Positions 1,439 through 13,435 of a stretch of DNA of 27,750 nucleotides are shown piece after piece. Every line of letters begins with the position of its first letter. Position 1 is the first letter of the stretch. This DNA is from Candidatus Heimdallarchaeota archaeon (GTDB lineage Archaea; Asgardarchaeota; Heimdallarchaeia; Heimdallarchaeales; Heimdallarchaeaceae): positions 1 to 27,750 of the forward strand of contig DXJF01000054.1 in assembly GCA_019057375.1 (NCBI GenBank), written 5' to 3'. Under the pieces are notes generated by a model that was not told the DNA's origin, made no database searches, and worked only from the letters and a program-made list of their open reading frames with translations. The position numbers and the translations under genes are program-made.

Positions 1439-1528
1439 TATCACCTTTGCTACTTTAGAATTTTAAAGCAAAAATATGATAAAATACAAATCTAGTGATT
1501 CTGCACTAAACAATAAAATGGTGACAAT

Positions 1529-2410
1529 ATGAAATATACAAAATTCTACTTTGTTTCCCTCATTTTCATTTCTAGTTTGTTTATTGGAGTGTTTGTTCCT
1601 GTAAGCTTTGCAAGCGCAGAAAGAGGAATTACCTTCGAACCTGAAGTACCTTCTCTTACCTCTGTTGATGTGACTATTAACCTTGAAGCTCCTTCTTATG
1701 GAAAAGCTGAGCATTGGGCTGTTATCGTAGGTATAAGTGATTATAAGGTTATAAACGATCTTCGTTTCTGTGATGAAGATGCTAATGATTGGTTTAACTA
1801 CTTTATTGGACTAGGGTACGAACATATTATTGTTCTAGGTGATAATTCAAGTGAATATTATCAATTTGATAGCATAGCTTCTGAATATAACATCAAACAA
1901 ACACTAAACTATGTTGTAGCAAATGCTGATGAAGACGATGTGATATCTTATGTAACATCCGGTCATGGATCAAGAGCTAAAGTTGGAGAAAGTCTTATCT
2001 GTGCATGGGATTATGGAGCTGGCGAAAACGATGAAGACGGAAGATTTTGGGACTATGAGTTATCTGCTATACTAGAATTAGCAGTCGCTAAGCAAATATT
2101 TGTTTTCATTGATCATTGCTTTGCTGGTGGTTTTGGACCTGAATTAATGGCTATGCCTAATTCTAAATATGTTTGGTTTGGTGCTGCTTGTGCTGAACAA
2201 GGAATGGGTTGGGATGCATATGAATTCAACAATGGTCTGTGGACTTACTATTTCTTAGAATTTACTCTAGTTGATCATTTTAATTCCAGTCCTAAGACAA
2301 CAATGGAAGAAGCTTTTAATTATGCTTTAGCAAATTTTTCATTTAAATTCGGAGTAATGGTTCCAGAAGAATATGATGGGGATTCACATAAATTGTTTAT
2401 ACTAATTTAA
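1529..2410 (+). CDS. Secreted caspase-family (peptidase C14, metacaspase-like) cysteine protease
   Basis: Signal peptide (MKYTKFYFVSLIFISSLFIGVFVPVSFASA), then WAVIVGISDY...LRFCDEDA. Catalytic His in YVTSGHGS and catalytic Cys in FVFIDHCFAGGF. Confidence 0.85.
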   Translation: MKYTKFYFVSLIFISSLFIGVFVPVSFASAERGITFEPEVPSLTSVDVTINLEAPSYGKAEHWAVIVGISDYKVINDLRFCDEDANDWFNYFIGLGYEHIIVLGDNSSEYYQFDSIASEYNIKQTLNYVVANADEDDVISYVTSGHGSRAKVGESLICAWDYGAGENDEDGRFWDYELSAILELAVAKQIFVFIDHCFAGGFGPELMAMPNSKYVWFGAACAEQGMGWDAYEFNNGLWTYYFLEFTLVDHFNSSPKTTMEEAFNYALANFSFKFGVMVPEEYDGDSHKLFILI

Positions 2411-2430
2411 CTTCTTTTTTTCTTTTTCTC
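2411..2430 (+). terminator. Oligo-T tract, probable archaeal terminator of the caspase gene
   Basis: CTTCTTTTTTTCTTTTTCTC directly after the stop codon, in a 33-bp gap between convergent genes. Confidence 0.45.
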
Positions 2431-2443
2431 TTATTCTATTTTA

Positions 2444-3367
2444 TTACTCAAATCCAAATTTAACTTTAGTTAGTTTTTCAGATAGTTCCCATAATTTCTT
2501 CGCATCTTCTTCATTGTGTGATGCTTCGTTAGATTCTACTTTGATAGGATAACCTCTATGTTCATTACGTCCTCTTGGACCGTAATATTCGCTACCTTTA
2601 ACGTCTGGATCAACAGATGAACGAATTGTGGGAAGCGCACCTTTAGCTGCACCTTGCATAAAGAAACCGAATAAACCCTTCAATATTGGTGCAAACCAAC
2701 CCATCATATGGTCAGCTAAACTTGTATTTGACATACCTGGATGTGCTGCGACAGAAATTGCATTAACATCTGCTTCTTTGAATCTCCTATCCAATTTATA
2801 AGTAAACAAAAGATTAGCTAGCTTCGAATTTCCATAGGCTTTCATTCTTGAATATTCTTTGCTATCCTCAAACATAAAATTATTAAAATCCATCTCTCCA
2901 AATTTGTGGCCATTACTACTCACATTCACTACTCGTGAGCCTTCTGTTTTCATAAGTAAATCATATAATAGTCCAGTTAAAGCAAAGTGTCCAAAATGGT
3001 TTGTGCCTATTTGACTCTCGAATCCATCTACAGTTTTTTGATAAGGTACCATCATTATTCCAGCATTGTTTACAAGCACATCTAAACGATCATATTTCTC
3101 TTTGAATTCAGAAGCAAATTTATTCACAGACTCCAAATTAGCTAAATCAAGTTTCATAATTTCAACAGAAGAATCAGGGATTTCTTTTTGAATTTTAGAT
3201 AGAGCTTTCTTTGCCTTTTCTAAGTTGCGACTAGCTAGAATGGTCTTCGCCCCCTTACGTGCAAATTCTTTAGCAGCTTCAAAACCTATACCACTGTTTG
3301 CACCTGTAACAATGAAAACCTTATCAGAAAGATTAGGTACATTCCTTGTTGTCCATTTCTCACTCAT
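2444..3367 (-). CDS. Classical short-chain dehydrogenase/reductase (retinol dehydrogenase/WWOX-like)
   Basis: Motifs TGANSGIG, NNAG, VSS, YGNSK (YxxxK) and HPG. Start placed at MSEKW (3367) rather than 3451 because AGGAGA lies 7 nt upstream. Confidence 0.9.
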   Translation of the reverse strand: MSEKWTTRNVPNLSDKVFIVTGANSGIGFEAAKEFARKGAKTILASRNLEKAKKALSKIQKEIPDSSVEIMKLDLANLESVNKFASEFKEKYDRLDVLVNNAGIMMVPYQKTVDGFESQIGTNHFGHFALTGLLYDLLMKTEGSRVVNVSSNGHKFGEMDFNNFMFEDSKEYSRMKAYGNSKLANLLFTYKLDRRFKEADVNAISVAAHPGMSNTSLADHMMGWFAPILKGLFGFFMQGAAKGALPTIRSSVDPDVKGSEYYGPRGRNEHRGYPIKVESNEASHNEEDAKKLWELSEKLTKVKFGFE

Positions 3368-3374
3368 TTGATTA

Positions 3375-3380
3375 TCTCCT
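3375..3380 (-). promoter_or_regulatory. Shine-Dalgarno-like ribosome binding site of the SDR gene
   Basis: AGGAGA on the minus strand, 7 nt upstream of the ATG at 3367. Confidence 0.5.
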
Positions 3381-3485
3381 ACAAGAAATTTTGCTCTTGA
3401 TGTTAAAAAGTTGCTTAAAATACAAAATTTTAGAATGGACATTCTATTCAAAACTAGATGAAAAAGAGAAGAGAGGGGTAAAATA

Positions 3486-5189
3486 CTATTTTCCTCTTAA
3501 GTTGGGTAGCTTGATTATACCTTTCTTTGACAGAAAGAAGACAGCTACACCTGCAGCTATACCTAGTCCAAATGCTAAACCTAAGACAATTCCTAAAACT
3601 CTACCTCTTCCAGGGTAATCCTTTCTATCCAATGGGTCAGTACCTGCTTGAATTTCCTCATAATCTGAGAAACCGTCACCATCAGAGTCGGCAGTGAACG
3701 GATCTGTAAAGTAAATTAATACTTCCTCGATTTCAGTAAGATTGTCTCCATCTATGTCTAAGAATGGATATAGGTCTATGTTTCCCCCATCACCCTCTAT
3801 TGCATAAGTTCCTGTTTCATTCCAGTTTGACCAGAAATTTCCAATTTCTGAAGAAGCATCGTACCACATTATATTTGTTGTTGACCAATCTTCTGCCAGA
3901 TGAGCTGTTTGATTTCCTATGCTGATAAAGACATTATAAAATACGGTTATATTTTCTGATGACCAGATTACTATAGGTACTTCAGTCCCTTCGTCTACTA
4001 TTAAGCAGGTTATAATATTGAAATTTATATCTACGTTACTTACCTCGTTTAAGTAAAGTCCATATTCAACCATATTTACGATAGTATTATTATTTATCTG
4101 GACATTATTCATATATTCAAATTCCAAACCATATTCAAAACCAGTTATGTAGTTGTTTTGAATAATACTATTATTTACACCTTCAAATTGCATTGCATCA
4201 CGGTACCCTTCAAAGCTAGAATCTTCTATCAATATCTCTTCAACATTTTCTGCATAAATTCCTGTGTTAGCTTTCACTTCCACATTTCTTACAGAAATAT
4301 CAGTACAATTATAGATTTGAATTCCGGAATAAACATCAACAAAAGAATGGTCTTCTATTAGTACGTTGGTTGAGTTAACTAGATATATTTGTCCATATTG
4401 GTCACCAGTTACAATTTCATCATTTTGATTATATAAAAATCCGAAAGGTTTACCATTGATAATATTGTTTTCAAATGTATTATTCAAAATATATTCAATT
4501 TCATCATCAGAGAAATAGAATCCTGAACTGTGAAGGATGTTGTCTCTAAAAGTGGTATTTGTAACACGATTTATTCTAATCGCTGAAGAATTTCCATAAA
4601 AAATATTATTCTCTACAATATTATTTTCATCTGTTATTCGAAAGATGGAGCTAGAGTAATCGCTTGTTAAATAAACTACGTTGTTTGTAAATTTCACACC
4701 TTCTCTAAAGTTAGAGCTCTGTCTTGCTTTAAGCGTATTGTTATGAATAGTTAGATACAAAGCGTTAGGTCCTCCGATTGACAATGCACCCTCAACTGTA
4801 CAGTTGATAACAGAAGCTTTTCCTGTCATAGAATCATGAAAGTAAGCCCCATAAGTTGAACCTATCAAATGGGAGTCACGAAGAACATAGTAGGTTGTTG
4901 ATGATACACCTTTAAAATCAACTGCTAATGAATCTGTTGTATTGATCATTAGATTGTCAATAATATATGGGTCATCTGAAGCACCTGTTCCTGAGGAACT
5001 ATAGGATGCTATGTTTGTATCATTAATTACGATTCCAGCTGTTGTAAATAGCTTTATTTCTGATTTCTGTTCATTTTCAACTATACTTCCAATATTTCCA
5101 TTACTCAAAAGTGGAATTAATAGAATGGTAACAAGAAGAGTAGTTAAGCCAATTTTTAAAGTTAGTTTATATTTCTTATAGCTTGTCAT
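3486..5189 (-). CDS. Cell-surface glycoprotein: signal peptide, right-handed parallel beta-helix (NosD/PbH1) repeats, TSP3-like Ca-binding DxDGD repeats, C-terminal TM anchor
   Basis: GTGASDDPYII motif; repeated I.NN.(I/F) beta-helix rungs; DIDGDNLTEIEE and DSDGDGFSDYEEIQAGTDPLD repeats; hydrophobic VLGIVLGLAFGLGIAAGVAVFFL followed by a basic tail. Many N-x-S/T sequons. Confidence 0.8.
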   Translation of the reverse strand: MTSYKKYKLTLKIGLTTLLVTILLIPLLSNGNIGSIVENEQKSEIKLFTTAGIVINDTNIASYSSSGTGASDDPYIIDNLMINTTDSLAVDFKGVSSTTYYVLRDSHLIGSTYGAYFHDSMTGKASVINCTVEGALSIGGPNALYLTIHNNTLKARQSSNFREGVKFTNNVVYLTSDYSSSIFRITDENNIVENNIFYGNSSAIRINRVTNTTFRDNILHSSGFYFSDDEIEYILNNTFENNIINGKPFGFLYNQNDEIVTGDQYGQIYLVNSTNVLIEDHSFVDVYSGIQIYNCTDISVRNVEVKANTGIYAENVEEILIEDSSFEGYRDAMQFEGVNNSIIQNNYITGFEYGLEFEYMNNVQINNNTIVNMVEYGLYLNEVSNVDINFNIITCLIVDEGTEVPIVIWSSENITVFYNVFISIGNQTAHLAEDWSTTNIMWYDASSEIGNFWSNWNETGTYAIEGDGGNIDLYPFLDIDGDNLTEIEEVLIYFTDPFTADSDGDGFSDYEEIQAGTDPLDRKDYPGRGRVLGIVLGLAFGLGIAAGVAVFFLSKKGIIKLPNLRGK

Positions 5190-5412: not shown

Positions 5413-7179
5413 TTGAAATTGTTTAATAAAAAGAATATTTATGTTTCCTGTGCAATTCTCACTTTACTTACCATAACACTAATTGTTATCCCATATCCTC
5501 CTAGAAAACCTAGTAACATAATTCTTGATGATTTTACATATGCCATTGAATATACACAGTATGAGTTAAACAAGCTTGAGAAAAAACACAATCTTCCAAG
5601 TATAGCAGTCAGTTTACTAAGTGGGGAAGAAGTTATTTATCAGCAAACAACTGGTTTGTCAAATATCGAAGAAAATATCCCAGCTGATTTTGAAACAGTA
5701 TACAAAGCTGGTTCAATCTCGAAACTTTTTACTGCTATCGAAATTATGCGCCTATATGAAGAGAGTCTTATTGATTTAGATGAACCAATTACTACTTATC
5801 TTCCTGAATTCTCTATCAAGAGTCGTTTTAATGAAACTGGAGTAATTACTATAAGAAATATTTTAGCTCATCGTTCAGGATTACCTAGAAATGGAAACAT
5901 AGCGGTATGGGCTTGGGATAATCAAACCTATATTTTAAGAGATTTAGTAGCTTCTCTTGAGGAATCTTATGTTGCGTATCCTGCAGATTATAGATACAAA
6001 TATACTAATATTGGACCTAATATTCTAGGACGAATTATCGAATTAAAAAGAGGGCAATGGTTTGCAACTCATATGAGAGATTCATTGCTCTTGCCTATTG
6101 GTATGAATTCTAGTGGATTTTTAGCACAAGATATTGTAGATAGTGAGAAAATAGCTATCGGTTACTATAAAGAAAAGAAAAGCAATGTACCATACAATCA
6201 GCATGATCTAATCTACTTAGCATCTGGAAACTTATATACAACCTTGGAGGATTTGAATGAGTTTGCAAAATTTATATTCAATAAAGGAAATGTAAAAGGA
6301 CTACAAGTTTTAAATGAATCAACACTTTCTATGATGTTTCAACCTCAATTTTCTAAACCTACAGATCCTCAACAAGTAGGATTGGGTTTCTTTTTAGATC
6401 GAACTATATTGGCCAATAATGAGTTAATGGTTTTTCATGAAGGAATTAACCAAGGAACGGCCTCAATAGTTGCCTTAATACCAGAAAAACAACTCGGAGT
6501 TGTTATGTTTTCAAATTCTGATGAATTTGAAAGTATCTCAAAGAGCCTAGCTCTAGAAATTCTAGAATTGATGTATGAAACAAAAACTGGCTTGAATAAA
6601 GAAACAACAAAAGTAGAACTAGCTGAAATACATCCTTCTATTCTTAAGAACTATGTTGGCAAATATGCTGTTGAAGGAGATATATCTGAAGTGATGTTGA
6701 TATCAAATAAGTTTCTTATAATGCAATATCAAGGCTTTAGTTTCAACTTGTTGCCAATAAATGAAAGTACCTTCATTGCGAAACATTGGTTAGTTAATGT
6801 TGGAGATATTAAAGTAAGATTTTTCGAAGATTTTATGATTGTATCATTTGAAAATGTTTACCATTCTATTTGTCCACTCTATAATCAAAGCAATGATTTA
6901 ATCTCATTTTGGTCATCTTTCCTAGGAAATTATGATGTGTGGCTTCGACATTTTTCTATATACACAGGAGTAGAAATTCCAGGATCTATAGAATTCCAAA
7001 TTGTGGATGATATTCTTAGATTTTCGTGGAATAATTTCATCGTAACCCCAATAAGCCAGTCTGAACTAATAATATTGAGCGGTCCATTTGATGGAGAAAC
7101 AATGTATCGTAGTTCAGAAAGTGGGTATATCTATTGGCAAAATAGAGTGTTCAAACCAGCAGAGAATTATCCCTCTTAG
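5413..7179 (+). CDS. Serine hydrolase of the beta-lactamase/class C PBP-like family, N-terminally anchored or secreted
   Basis: SxxK (GSISKLFT), HRSGL, YxN (YTNIGPNILG), SGNLYTTLEDL and an HxG-type third motif (FHEG). Hydrophobic N-terminus, TTG start. Confidence 0.85.
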   Translation: MKLFNKKNIYVSCAILTLLTITLIVIPYPPRKPSNIILDDFTYAIEYTQYELNKLEKKHNLPSIAVSLLSGEEVIYQQTTGLSNIEENIPADFETVYKAGSISKLFTAIEIMRLYEESLIDLDEPITTYLPEFSIKSRFNETGVITIRNILAHRSGLPRNGNIAVWAWDNQTYILRDLVASLEESYVAYPADYRYKYTNIGPNILGRIIELKRGQWFATHMRDSLLLPIGMNSSGFLAQDIVDSEKIAIGYYKEKKSNVPYNQHDLIYLASGNLYTTLEDLNEFAKFIFNKGNVKGLQVLNESTLSMMFQPQFSKPTDPQQVGLGFFLDRTILANNELMVFHEGINQGTASIVALIPEKQLGVVMFSNSDEFESISKSLALEILELMYETKTGLNKETTKVELAEIHPSILKNYVGKYAVEGDISEVMLISNKFLIMQYQGFSFNLLPINESTFIAKHWLVNVGDIKVRFFEDFMIVSFENVYHSICPLYNQSNDLISFWSSFLGNYDVWLRHFSIYTGVEIPGSIEFQIVDDILRFSWNNFIVTPISQSELIILSGPFDGETMYRSSESGYIYWQNRVFKPAENYPS

Positions 7180-12795: not shown

Positions 12796-12870
12796 TTCCC
12801 ATTATTGTTTTTTTCTCTTAAGTCATTTTGTGTTATTTTTTTCCTAGGTCATTATTTCTATAATGGTAAT

Positions 12871-12885
12871 AAAAAACTTATATAC
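12871..12885 (+). promoter_or_regulatory. BRE/TATA-like promoter of the RING gene
   Basis: AAAAAACTTATATAC, with the TATA element 21-27 nt upstream of the ATG at 12905, consistent with a leaderless transcript. Confidence 0.45.
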
Positions 12886-12904
12886 ACTTAATTTTCTTAT
12901 GCAT

Positions 12905-13435
12905 ATGGATTTGAAAAGCAGAAAATGTTCCTTTTGTGGAAAAAGTCCAGTTAACGTTTATTGGACATTCAAAACCACTGCCCATTGTTCATTTAGGTGC
13001 TATGCTACAAGTTCTGCAGGCCTTCTATTACTTCTATCTGTAATTTTTGGAGCACTTTTTGCAGGTTTGATGATAGGATTTGCTGTTTTAGAAATAAATC
13101 CAGTAATACATATACCTGTTATTGTTGCAATAGTTTTTGGTCCATTACCTGGTTTCATAATTTCGTTTCTAGGTTACAAATATAGGCGAGAAGATAAGAT
13201 TAATCCTCCTGTTAAAACTCAACATAAAGATTTAAAGGGTGTTGAAACAGATTCAAAGCTTATCTGTTCTATATGTAAAGAAGTGATTCTAGATAAACAA
13301 GAAAAAGCAATTGTGGAACCTTGTATGCACGCATTCCATCGTTCTCACTTAGCAAGCTGGACTGCTGAAAACTATAATTGTCCTAATTGTGATAAAAAAA
13401 TAGAAAAAATTACTTTTGTCCATAAAGACAATTAA
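12905..13435 (+). CDS. Membrane-anchored RING-H2-like protein (candidate E3 ubiquitin ligase) with an N-terminal treble-clef zinc finger
   Basis: N-terminal C-x2-C-x16-C-S-x2-C; two TM helices followed by KYRR; C-terminal C-x2-C-x15-C-x-H-x2-H-x2-H-x10-C-x2-C with conserved Trp (HLASW) and CP. Start could be 12863, 12899 or 12905. Confidence 0.75.
   Translation: MDLKSRKCSFCGKSPVNVYWTFKTTAHCSFRCYATSSAGLLLLLSVIFGALFAGLMIGFAVLEINPVIHIPVIVAIVFGPLPGFIISFLGYKYRREDKINPPVKTQHKDLKGVETDSKLICSICKEVILDKQEKAIVEPCMHAFHRSHLASWTAENYNCPNCDKKIEKITFVHKDN

Follow-up and report, generated by a model that had tools for sequence, protein, structure and literature searches.

Proteases with the caspase fold are mostly treated as enzymes of cell death or signalling that act inside the cell. 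The inspection of a 27,750 nt stretch of DNA from Candidatus Heimdallarchaeota archaeon (contig DXJF01000054.1; this whole stretch is hereafter the window) showed a gene, at positions 1529..2410, for a caspase homologue whose N-terminus resembles a signal peptide. This raises the question of what such a protein might do, and on which side of the membrane. The original prediction had described it as a secreted single-domain metacaspase with an intact His-Cys dyad. The explanation favoured here, with a probability of roughly 0.68, is that the gene encodes an exported Arg/Lys-directed endopeptidase of clan CD, family C14, of the orthocaspase type. The open reading frame (ORF; 1529..2410 including the stop codon, + strand, as are all of its parts described below) starts with the ATG at 1529, the first after a stop, and has 293 codons. 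The ORF itself, its match to Pfam PF00656 and its full-length homologues (100% down to ∼40% identity to the 293 aa protein) define a complete C14 (orthocaspase-type) cysteine peptidase gene. Since database homologues are numerous, and residues His146 and Cys197 are kept across the family, this is a real gene and not a chance ORF. A small ORF on the opposite strand (1463-1714) found no support and was set aside.

In Pfam searches the protein matched Peptidase_C14 (PF00656; E 7.3e-08, 32.8 bits against a curated cut-off of 21.4; profile positions 2-136 of 233) and no other family at E<=1. It therefore contains no NACHT, TPR, WD40 or other partner domain, as had been proposed. The catalytic domain, of the caspase/hemoglobinase fold, covers residues 61-293 (1709..2407) and extends to the very C-terminus. 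A word-indexed search, covering proteins 161-513 aa in length, detected 140 database proteins at E<=1e-3; the matches named by organism all came from Asgard archaea (Thor-, Heimdall-, Hod-, Hermod- and Promethearchaeota, or 'Asgard group'), except for one from Bathyarchaeia. An exhaustive search of cluster representatives returned 1019 at E<=1e-3, 277 at E<=1e-10 and 101 at E<=1e-30. A profile of 62 family members (alignment A2) was searched against all PDB chain sequences. The 11 distinct sequences found at E<=0.01 were all metacaspases or GSU0716: Yca1 (5.2e-18; its C276A mutant, 5.8e-16), the Candida glabrata metacaspase (7.7e-16), two sequences of Arabidopsis MC4 (AtMC4; 1.3e-15 and 1.5e-13), three of T. 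brucei MCA2 (TbMCA2; 9.3e-13 to 2.6e-12), two of AtMC9 (5.7e-11 and 1.6e-9), and the Geobacter protein GSU0716 (2.5e-10). With the threshold relaxed to E 10, the sole additions were MALT1 paracaspase chains (0.02-0.7) and a handful of unrelated proteins; legumains, gingipains, clostripain, separases and caspases were absent from the PDB matches up to that value. Pfam C14 was matched at E<=0.01 by 54 of the 62 relatives. Neighbours in a protein atlas, to be taken as leads only, were C14 clusters (22 of 30 share that set) together with a few mixed C13/C14 bacterial clusters.

An AlphaFold2 (AF2) model obtained with the 62-row alignment showed a mean predicted local distance difference test score (pLDDT) of 89.3, rising to ∼97 for residues 61-293, and a predicted template modelling score of 0.80. 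Structural comparison of the model placed AtMC4 first (Z 25.3; 214 residues, 2.3 Å), followed by AtMC9 (24.9; 218 residues, 2.5 Å), human legumain (23.4; 207 residues, 2.2 Å), OaAEP1 (23.0), GSU0716 (22.5), MALT1 (22.4), caspase-9 (21.2), GPI8 (21.1) and Yca1 (21.0). Values for RgpB (12.0), Kgp (10.8), separases (∼10) and clostripain (8.9) were far lower. Re-ranked Foldseek matches agreed with these results. By structure, then, the metacaspases (C14B) come first and C13 is a close second; sequence decides for C14B. No match to PF01650, and no similarity to C13 structures by sequence, was found that would place the protein in C13. It showed neither sequence similarity nor close structural similarity to RgpB or Kgp (C25), and the model sets it clearly apart from both C25 and C11. 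Legumain and the gingipains had been named at the outset as the structures to be compared with the metacaspases, and the protein groups with neither C13 nor C25. Gingipains (C25) and clostripain (C11) provide a functional analogy only, as secreted Arg/Lys-specific clan CD endopeptidases that serve extracellular proteolysis.

The caspase/hemoglobinase alpha/beta fold, the dyad and a PF00656 score above the gathering score assign the protein to clan CD, family C14. The structural alignments span approximately residues 59 to 293; since they reach residue 293, the C-terminal half completes the fold even though no p10 sequence model matches it. Residues 1-60 consist of a signal-like helix and a linker with no Pfam domain, and include neither a type I prodomain nor a type II long linker. 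In the definitions given by Klemencic et al. (PMC6426788), prokaryotic forms lacking p10 are orthocaspases. The protein is of prokaryotic origin and has a p20 with the His-Cys dyad and no p10 recognizable by sequence. Because only the p20 can be recognized, and no type I prodomain is present, it would be an orthocaspase rather than a metacaspase under current usage. The 'metacaspase' of the original prediction thus holds for C14 membership, for the metacaspase-like p20 and, by alignment, for the pocket, and fails for the p10 and the prodomain.

The active site was inspected next to that of known metacaspases, and conservation was counted over 264 proteins, collected in the word-indexed and exhaustive searches and aligned to the hidden Markov model (HMM) of alignment A1. 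The motif S144-G145-H146-G147 (1958..1969) holds the catalytic His146 (codon 1964-1966), and D195-H196-C197-F-A-G-G (residues 195-201; 2111..2131) holds the catalytic Cys197 (codon 2117-2119). In the AF2 model H146-G147 follows the strand at 138-144, and C197 that at 189-195. The dyad is conserved in almost all relatives (H146 in 260/262, C197 in 261/263). HMM alignments to Yca1 and AtMC4 paired the family's sGHG with SGHG, lDhCfSG with FDSCHSG, and yCdeDa with GCINDA. The last of these corresponds to C81-D82-E83-D84-A85 (1769..1783), at the start of helix 1. The review by McLuskey and Mottram (PMC4357240) gives Cys92, Asp95, Ser156 and Asp211 as the S1 residues of TbMCA2, completely conserved in Yca1. 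Since the spacings C-x-x-D, S-G-H and D-x-C match, C81, D84, S144 and D195 are the predicted counterparts of these residues, suggesting specificity for Arg or Lys. Their conservation is high (D84 256/258, D195 250/263, S144 241/262, C81 219/258). Both dyad motifs are therefore as first reported, and the two acidic residues assigned at that time to the S1 pocket, D84 (in DEDA) and D195, align with the Asp residues of GCINDA and FDSCHSG in Yca1, i.e. with the Asp95 and Asp211 described for TbMCA2. The protein might nonetheless have lost its catalytic activity and serve as a binding protein with the caspase fold: bacteria contain many pseudo-orthocaspases (858 of 9,994 in the counts of PMC6426788), and the same genome contains a degenerate caspase-like domain on contig C103. 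However, the four pocket residues, like His146, Gly147 and Cys197, are intact and show strong conservation across the relatives; a dead enzyme is the most improbable of the readings considered.

The His of D-H-C had been noted as atypical. It is so when compared with the Ser or Cys of metacaspases; as a special feature it does not hold up, since His196 occurs in 176 of 263 relatives, with Asn (26), Ser (22), Ala (15), Thr (11) or Cys (7) elsewhere. A mechanistic novelty was rejected in view of this variability across the family; the residue appears to be a habit of the clade and is unlikely to be mechanistically essential. Between the strands bearing His146 and Cys197 lies a conserved acidic loop, W160-D161...G-E-N-D-E-D-G...D175-Y-E177 (2006..2059), which includes an acidic insertion of the family's own (W160-D161-x-G-x-G-E-x-x-E-D-G). 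Conservation in this loop was 242/261 for D161, 190/252 for D170, 244/257 for G171, 253/263 for D175 and 257/263 for E177. The Ca2+ site of TbMCA2 is described as consisting of Asp173, Asp189, Asp190 and Asp220, all completely conserved in Yca1 (PMC4357240). In the alignments D175 corresponds to the first Asp of the D189/D190 pair, Tyr176 to the second, and E177 to a further acidic residue; D175 and E177 align with the D-D-E or D-D-D stretch of Yca1 and AtMC4. The segment 160-177 may be a metal-binding or regulatory loop. The family alignment contains no conserved Lys or Arg after Cys197, and therefore no p20/p10 autoprocessing site is evident. Two cysteines other than Cys197 and Cys81 also show strong conservation, C158 (221/260) and C221 (249/261); they could be joined by a disulfide bond, given an exported protein, or could lie along the active site.

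Among enzymes of solved structure, then, the best sequence matches are the C14B metacaspases (Yca1, TbMCA2, AtMC4 and AtMC9), with which the protein shares SGHG, D-x-C-x-[SA]-G, the C-x-x-D-A pocket motif and the alignment of D175/E177 with D-D-E. Unlike them, it lacks both a Pro/Gln-rich or zinc-finger prodomain and a long p20-p10 linker, and carries a predicted signal peptide instead; its p10 is undetectable by sequence (alignments stop near residue 205), its Ca2+ site appears to be kept only in part, and the catalytic Cys is preceded by His. Metacaspases are mostly cytosolic, whereas this protein is predicted to be exported. With the orthocaspases (MaOC1 of Microcystis, and Geobacter GSU0716, structure 3bij) it has in common a prokaryotic p20-type C14 domain, an intact dyad and the absence of a sequence-detectable p10. 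What sets it apart from known orthocaspases is its place in an Asgard-centred clade, whose caspase domains invariably occupy the extreme C-terminus, together with a predicted export signal.

The first 30 residues (1529..1618) have the layout of a Sec-type signal peptide, or of a signal anchor if uncleaved, as indicated by the sequence, the AF2 model and the family layout. The n-region, MKYTK, has two Lys in its first five residues; it is followed by a hydrophobic core (F6-V25, with Pro24) and a c-region S-F-A-S-A (A28-S-A30), after which come E31-R32. Residues F6-A30 are uncharged. Positive charge is found only on the N-terminal side and the net charge after the hydrophobic segment is negative, which corresponds to an N-in, C-out orientation. 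No twin-Arg motif, lipobox Cys, pilin-type motif or C-terminal sorting signal was found in the protein. The original suggestion of a signal peptide is borne out to the extent that the n/h/c layout is present and enriched in the family, and cleavage would probably occur after A-S-A30. Residues 31-60 (1619..1708) form a variable, disordered linker, possibly a stalk or a short propeptide, with a mean pLDDT of 51-67 per 10-residue block and poorly conserved columns in alignment A1. In the AF2 model a helix at 5-19 is followed by disorder, residues 20-60 being of low confidence.

To be counted as signal-like, a protein had to contain a charge-free 12-mer with a mean Kyte-Doolittle value >=2.2, starting within the first 30 residues, with a K or R ahead of it. 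This rule was satisfied by 148 of the 225 family proteins with an M start and a complete domain, versus 312 of the genome's 2044 ORFs of 200 aa or more (15%). Many of the 77 family proteins that failed begin inside the hydrophobic segment or an Ig-like module, and look like truncated gene calls; a few others have hydrophobic N-termini that fall below the strict rule. The catalytic domain is acidic and poor in Lys and Arg: K+R amounts to 4.7%, compared to a median of 6.0% for the exported-like ORFs of the genome and 12.1% for all long ORFs. An avoidance of autolysis was considered for this depletion and rejected: the value lies at the 2nd percentile genome-wide, yet 23% of exported-like proteins are as low or lower. 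Since such a content is ordinary among exported-like proteins, it supports export and implies no special adaptation.

The architecture of the relatives points in the same direction. Most are longer proteins that end with the caspase domain, and in 27 of the 35 long relatives scanned this domain was preceded by extracellular-type modules (Big_7, PPC, CUB, PKD, fn3, He_PIG, cadherin-like, Big_5, CARDB and Laminin_G). None of the 35 contained NACHT, TPR, WD40 or another intracellular signalling domain; the remaining eight showed only C14 or nothing. Two fusions with other enzymes were observed. In P0146 (1152 aa), a caspase domain of the same family is combined with a subtilase S8 domain and Ig-like repeats. 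P0153 (1396 aa) has a family caspase domain fused to a Porphyromonas-type peptidyl-arginine deiminase (PAD_porph), P-domains and PKD repeats, and recalls the pairing of gingipains with the peptidyl-arginine deiminase PPAD in Porphyromonas; by analogy, the deiminase fusion would fit Arg specificity. The N-terminal layout, its enrichment in the family, the domain context of the relatives and the composition together make an extracytoplasmic location of the protease likely. Export is less unusual than the original prediction implied, as signal- or helix-bearing prokaryotic homologues and homologues with Big_7 were catalogued in 2012 and 2019: Asplund-Samuelsson et al. (PMC3501461) reported 46 homologues from prokaryotes in which a lone N-terminal helix is 'possibly a signal peptide', as well as 30 classed as extracellular, and Klemencic et al. 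(PMC6426788) counted 93 archaeal p20 proteins; the dyad is intact in all 93, and 15 have an N-terminal Big_7.

These data also bear on whether the protein could be an intracellular cell-death or defence caspase whose hydrophobic N-terminus is no export signal. Most characterized C14 enzymes do act inside cells, and the protein matched the generic 'caspase' (p20) model of PADLOC (3.6e-8) and, weakly, NCBIfam caspase_w_EACC1 (E 0.0024; 17.4 bits against a cut-off of 140). However, it contains no sensor or effector domain, its two flanking genes had no PADLOC match, its scanned relatives are fused to extracellular modules and never to NACHT, TPR or WD40, and its positive-inside charge and acidic, K/R-poor composition are those of the exported proteins of the genome. 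An intracellular role is thus highly unlikely. A defence-system assignment was rejected, the PADLOC match being to the generic p20 model only, the flanks showing none, and the caspase_w_EACC1 score lying far below the cut-off.

As an exported Arg/Lys-directed endopeptidase, the protein would work as follows. Its first 30 residues would direct Sec-dependent export and would probably be removed after A-S-A30, leaving outside the membrane a flexible 30-residue tail and the 233-residue caspase-fold domain. Catalysis would be performed by the His146/Cys197 dyad, and the acidic S1 pocket formed by C81, D84, S144 and D195 would select Arg or Lys at P1, as in metacaspases. With no conserved basic residue after Cys197 to mark a p20/p10 cleavage site, the enzyme would be expected to work as a single chain. 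Its likeliest job would be the breakdown of extracellular protein, either to obtain nutrients from detrital protein or to trim cell-surface proteins. Published work on sediments offers a setting for this. In estuarine sediment (PMC6752024), Arg-specific clan CD C25-like enzymes dominate the signal-peptide-bearing peptidase genes, and Arg-P1 endopeptidase substrates are among the fastest hydrolysed. A preprint (10.1101/858530) reports that Asgard metagenome-assembled genomes (MAGs) from coastal sediment express genes for extracellular peptidases. Both habitat and lineage are in keeping with the degradation of protein outside the cell, and the exported Arg/Lys-directed endopeptidase was therefore rated the best explanation.

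Several observations weigh against this explanation. The pocket was assigned by sequence alignment only, and of the four Asp residues of the Ca2+ site only D189 has a clear counterpart (D175). The p10 half was not recognized by sequence, the PDB profile alignments all ending at positions 202-205. In addition, a test of the neighbourhood by tblastn, with seven window neighbours against 80 related loci, found no widely conserved gene partner that would point to a substrate, the shared ones being confined to close kin (L006-L012). Weak Pfam C13 matches were present in 16 of the 62 relatives (best, 4.3e-6), and the Z scores of legumain and the asparaginyl ligases are within ∼2 units of those of the metacaspases; together, these two results make a different P1 preference possible. 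Finally, the c-region varies within the clade, many Thor-type relatives having no clear A-x-A, and the h-region is long (∼20 residues), so that the segment could stay in place as a membrane anchor.

The C13 matches raise the prospect of an exported transpeptidase or ligase, like the legumain-type asparaginyl ligases or GPI8, that would join or anchor surface proteins. The mixed C13/C14 atlas clusters are compatible with it, and legumain-type ligases and GPI8 share with the protein a compact single-chain caspase fold and act, as predicted for it, on the extracytoplasmic or lumenal side. The legumain pocket is formed by Arg-His...Glu...Asp; in contrast, the pocket motif here is metacaspase-like, C-x-x-D ... 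D-x-C. Neither the protein (no C13 match at E<=1) nor the family profile (no C13 chain up to E 10) showed a match to C13 at the sequence level, and inspection of the window and of related loci found no genes for partners of the kind seen in a transamidase complex. A ligase or transpeptidase in place of a hydrolase is therefore very improbable.

The long h-region and the variable c-region would suit another possibility: the same enzyme with its N-terminal segment uncleaved, tethered to the membrane on a 30-residue stalk, and maturing or shedding the cell's own surface proteins. The uncharged stretch of ∼20-25 residues is enough to span a membrane, and the disordered linker could serve as the stalk. 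Candidate substrates would be the two NosD-type beta-helix proteins encoded nearby (3486-5189 and 2-430), which have signal-like N-termini and whose neighbourhood with the caspase gene is kept down to ∼60% identity. Against this, the protein has a textbook P24...A28-S-A30 cleavage motif, and P-x-x-A-x-A is found in many relatives; the neighbourhood is conserved in close kin only and looks like ordinary synteny; and neither a lipobox nor a C-terminal sorting signal is present. Tethering is considered rather unlikely but is the main rival; in the favoured reading the signal is probably cleaved.

The distribution of the family was examined in 201 genomes of the same phylum, counting matches at E<=1e-10. 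The family was present in 67 of the 201 genomes, in 34 of the 85 of high quality, in 33 of 59 genera, and in 17 of the 21 genomes of the window's own taxonomic family, with up to six places per genome. Outside Asgard archaea, weaker relatives were detected in Bathyarchaeia, Thermoplasmata, Methanobacteriota and a few bacterial MAGs. A FastTree phylogeny was computed for 246 catalytic domains and was rooted at the midpoint; from the 264 proteins, 18 had been excluded because fewer than 200 of their domain residues were aligned. The protein fell in a clade of 62 leaves (support 0.978), 55 of them with the short stand-alone architecture. This short clade was nested among lineages with long N-terminal extensions; overall, 157 proteins were long and 89 short. 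The stand-alone form may have arisen by loss of modules, a polarity that is only suggested because the root is the midpoint.

Other copies were looked for in the same genome, a 3.47-Mb assembly of 159 contigs (89% complete) in which the window is contig C154. A six-frame search with PF00656 gave no match, not even to the gene itself, being too insensitive for so divergent a family. The family alignment, however, detected five places: the gene described here and four more, two of which were examined. At L002:1456-1929 (contig C61), an ORF of 157 aa corresponds to the C-terminal half only: it is 44% identical to residues 153-293 and reads D-N-C where the gene described here has D-H-C. A tblastn search upstream of this fragment found no His-bearing N-terminal half; the ORF is either a truncated paralogue or the remnant of a pseudogene. 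At L004:22-2631 (contig C103, minus strand), an ORF of 869 aa contains a distant caspase-like domain (profile E 1.5e-6) in which SGHG is replaced by SLGE, and H-C of the aligned D-H-C motif by N-R. It has no signal-like N-terminus, and its C-terminal region shows repeated Cys motifs with a weak match to the Ada Zn-binding domain. It is a candidate archaeal pseudo-orthocaspase, a type that the 2019 survey did not find in Archaea (PMC6426788).

The original prediction is thus supported, with orthocaspase-type C14 as the refined label, and the gene is ordinary in kind, yet it comes from an uncharacterized and surprisingly abundant Asgard family: the 2019 survey comprised only 93 archaeal sequences, whereas here 67 of 201 sampled genomes of a single phylum carry the family. 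Literature searches on Asgard or archaeal metacaspases, orthocaspases and caspases found no paper describing or assaying this family, and no biochemical or structural characterization of an archaeal C14 peptidase; those combining Asgard with metacaspase or caspase returned incidental mentions only. One 'archaeal caspase' study reportedly dealt with caspase-like activity in Haloferax. The gene is the simplest version of a large family, present in multiple copies, of predicted exported caspase homologues in Asgard archaea, and the 233 residues that follow the linker make a convenient single-domain target that could provide the first such characterization. If the enzyme is active on Arg or Lys, a second clan CD family would stand beside the gingipain-like C25 among the presumed protein degraders of anoxic marine sediments, and a reference point would be gained for the origin of eukaryotic metacaspases and legumain-type enzymes.

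Asgard archaea are the closest prokaryotic relatives of eukaryotes. A bolder, very unlikely proposal is that their exported orthocaspases with a C-terminal catalytic domain are the archaeal stock of the eukaryotic clan CD enzymes, sister to metacaspases or to the lumenal C13 enzymes (legumain and GPI8). It is compatible with the higher rank of eukaryotic metacaspases over the one bacterial structure among the solved-structure matches, a comparison for which PDB sampling is far too thin, and with the near-equal structural closeness of legumain and GPI8. Were it true, these eukaryotic proteases would have originated in the archaeal host and not in the bacterial endosymbiont, and the ancestral job of the caspase fold in the lineage would have been extracytoplasmic proteolysis rather than cell death.

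The surroundings of the gene were inspected as well. The closest loci with a caspase gene (L006, L007, L012 and L008; 84-91% identity) are in Candidatus Heimdallarchaeota MAGs. Upstream, a DUF5700 gene ends at 1438, leaving an AT-rich intergenic leader of 90 nt (1439..1528) with a putative promoter role and a Shine-Dalgarno-like GGTGA at 1520-1524, 4 nt 5′ of the ATG. A function based on an operon with DUF5700 was dropped: the DUF5700 protein has no signal-like N-terminus, and its gene is separated from the caspase gene in L006. Directly 3′ of the stop lies a T-rich, terminator-like tract (2411..2443, + strand); archaeal transcription is terminated by oligo-T tracts. The downstream neighbour, a short-chain dehydrogenase (SDR) gene at 2444-3451, is on the other strand and convergent with the caspase gene. 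Metagenome runs from marine sediment and a cold seep contained DNA near-identical or related to the caspase gene, with relatives of roughly 85-99% identity in DNA runs X3-X5. The metatranscriptome run X20 gave no support for transcription: a single contig of 226 nt, at depth 2, matched 1832-1946 with two differences and then continued into unlike sequence.

The window has a G+C content of 31-35% and encodes, among others, glycosidases, a probably exported hydrolase, likely beta-helix surface proteins and a RING-finger protein. The two NosD/beta-helix proteins (3486-5189 and 2-430, both on the - strand) are paralogous and likely to be cell-surface proteins; the complete one (3486-5189) additionally carries a TSP3 repeat and, at its C-terminus, a transmembrane anchor. 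At 5413-7179 (+), a 588 aa protein with the beta-lactamase fold (serine hydrolase) has a hydrophobic N-terminus and is probably exported. The 190 aa protein encoded at 12863-13435 (+) has a C-terminal RING finger (Pfam zf-RING_2, E 3.4e-8), a eukaryote-like signature consistent with an Asgard genome.

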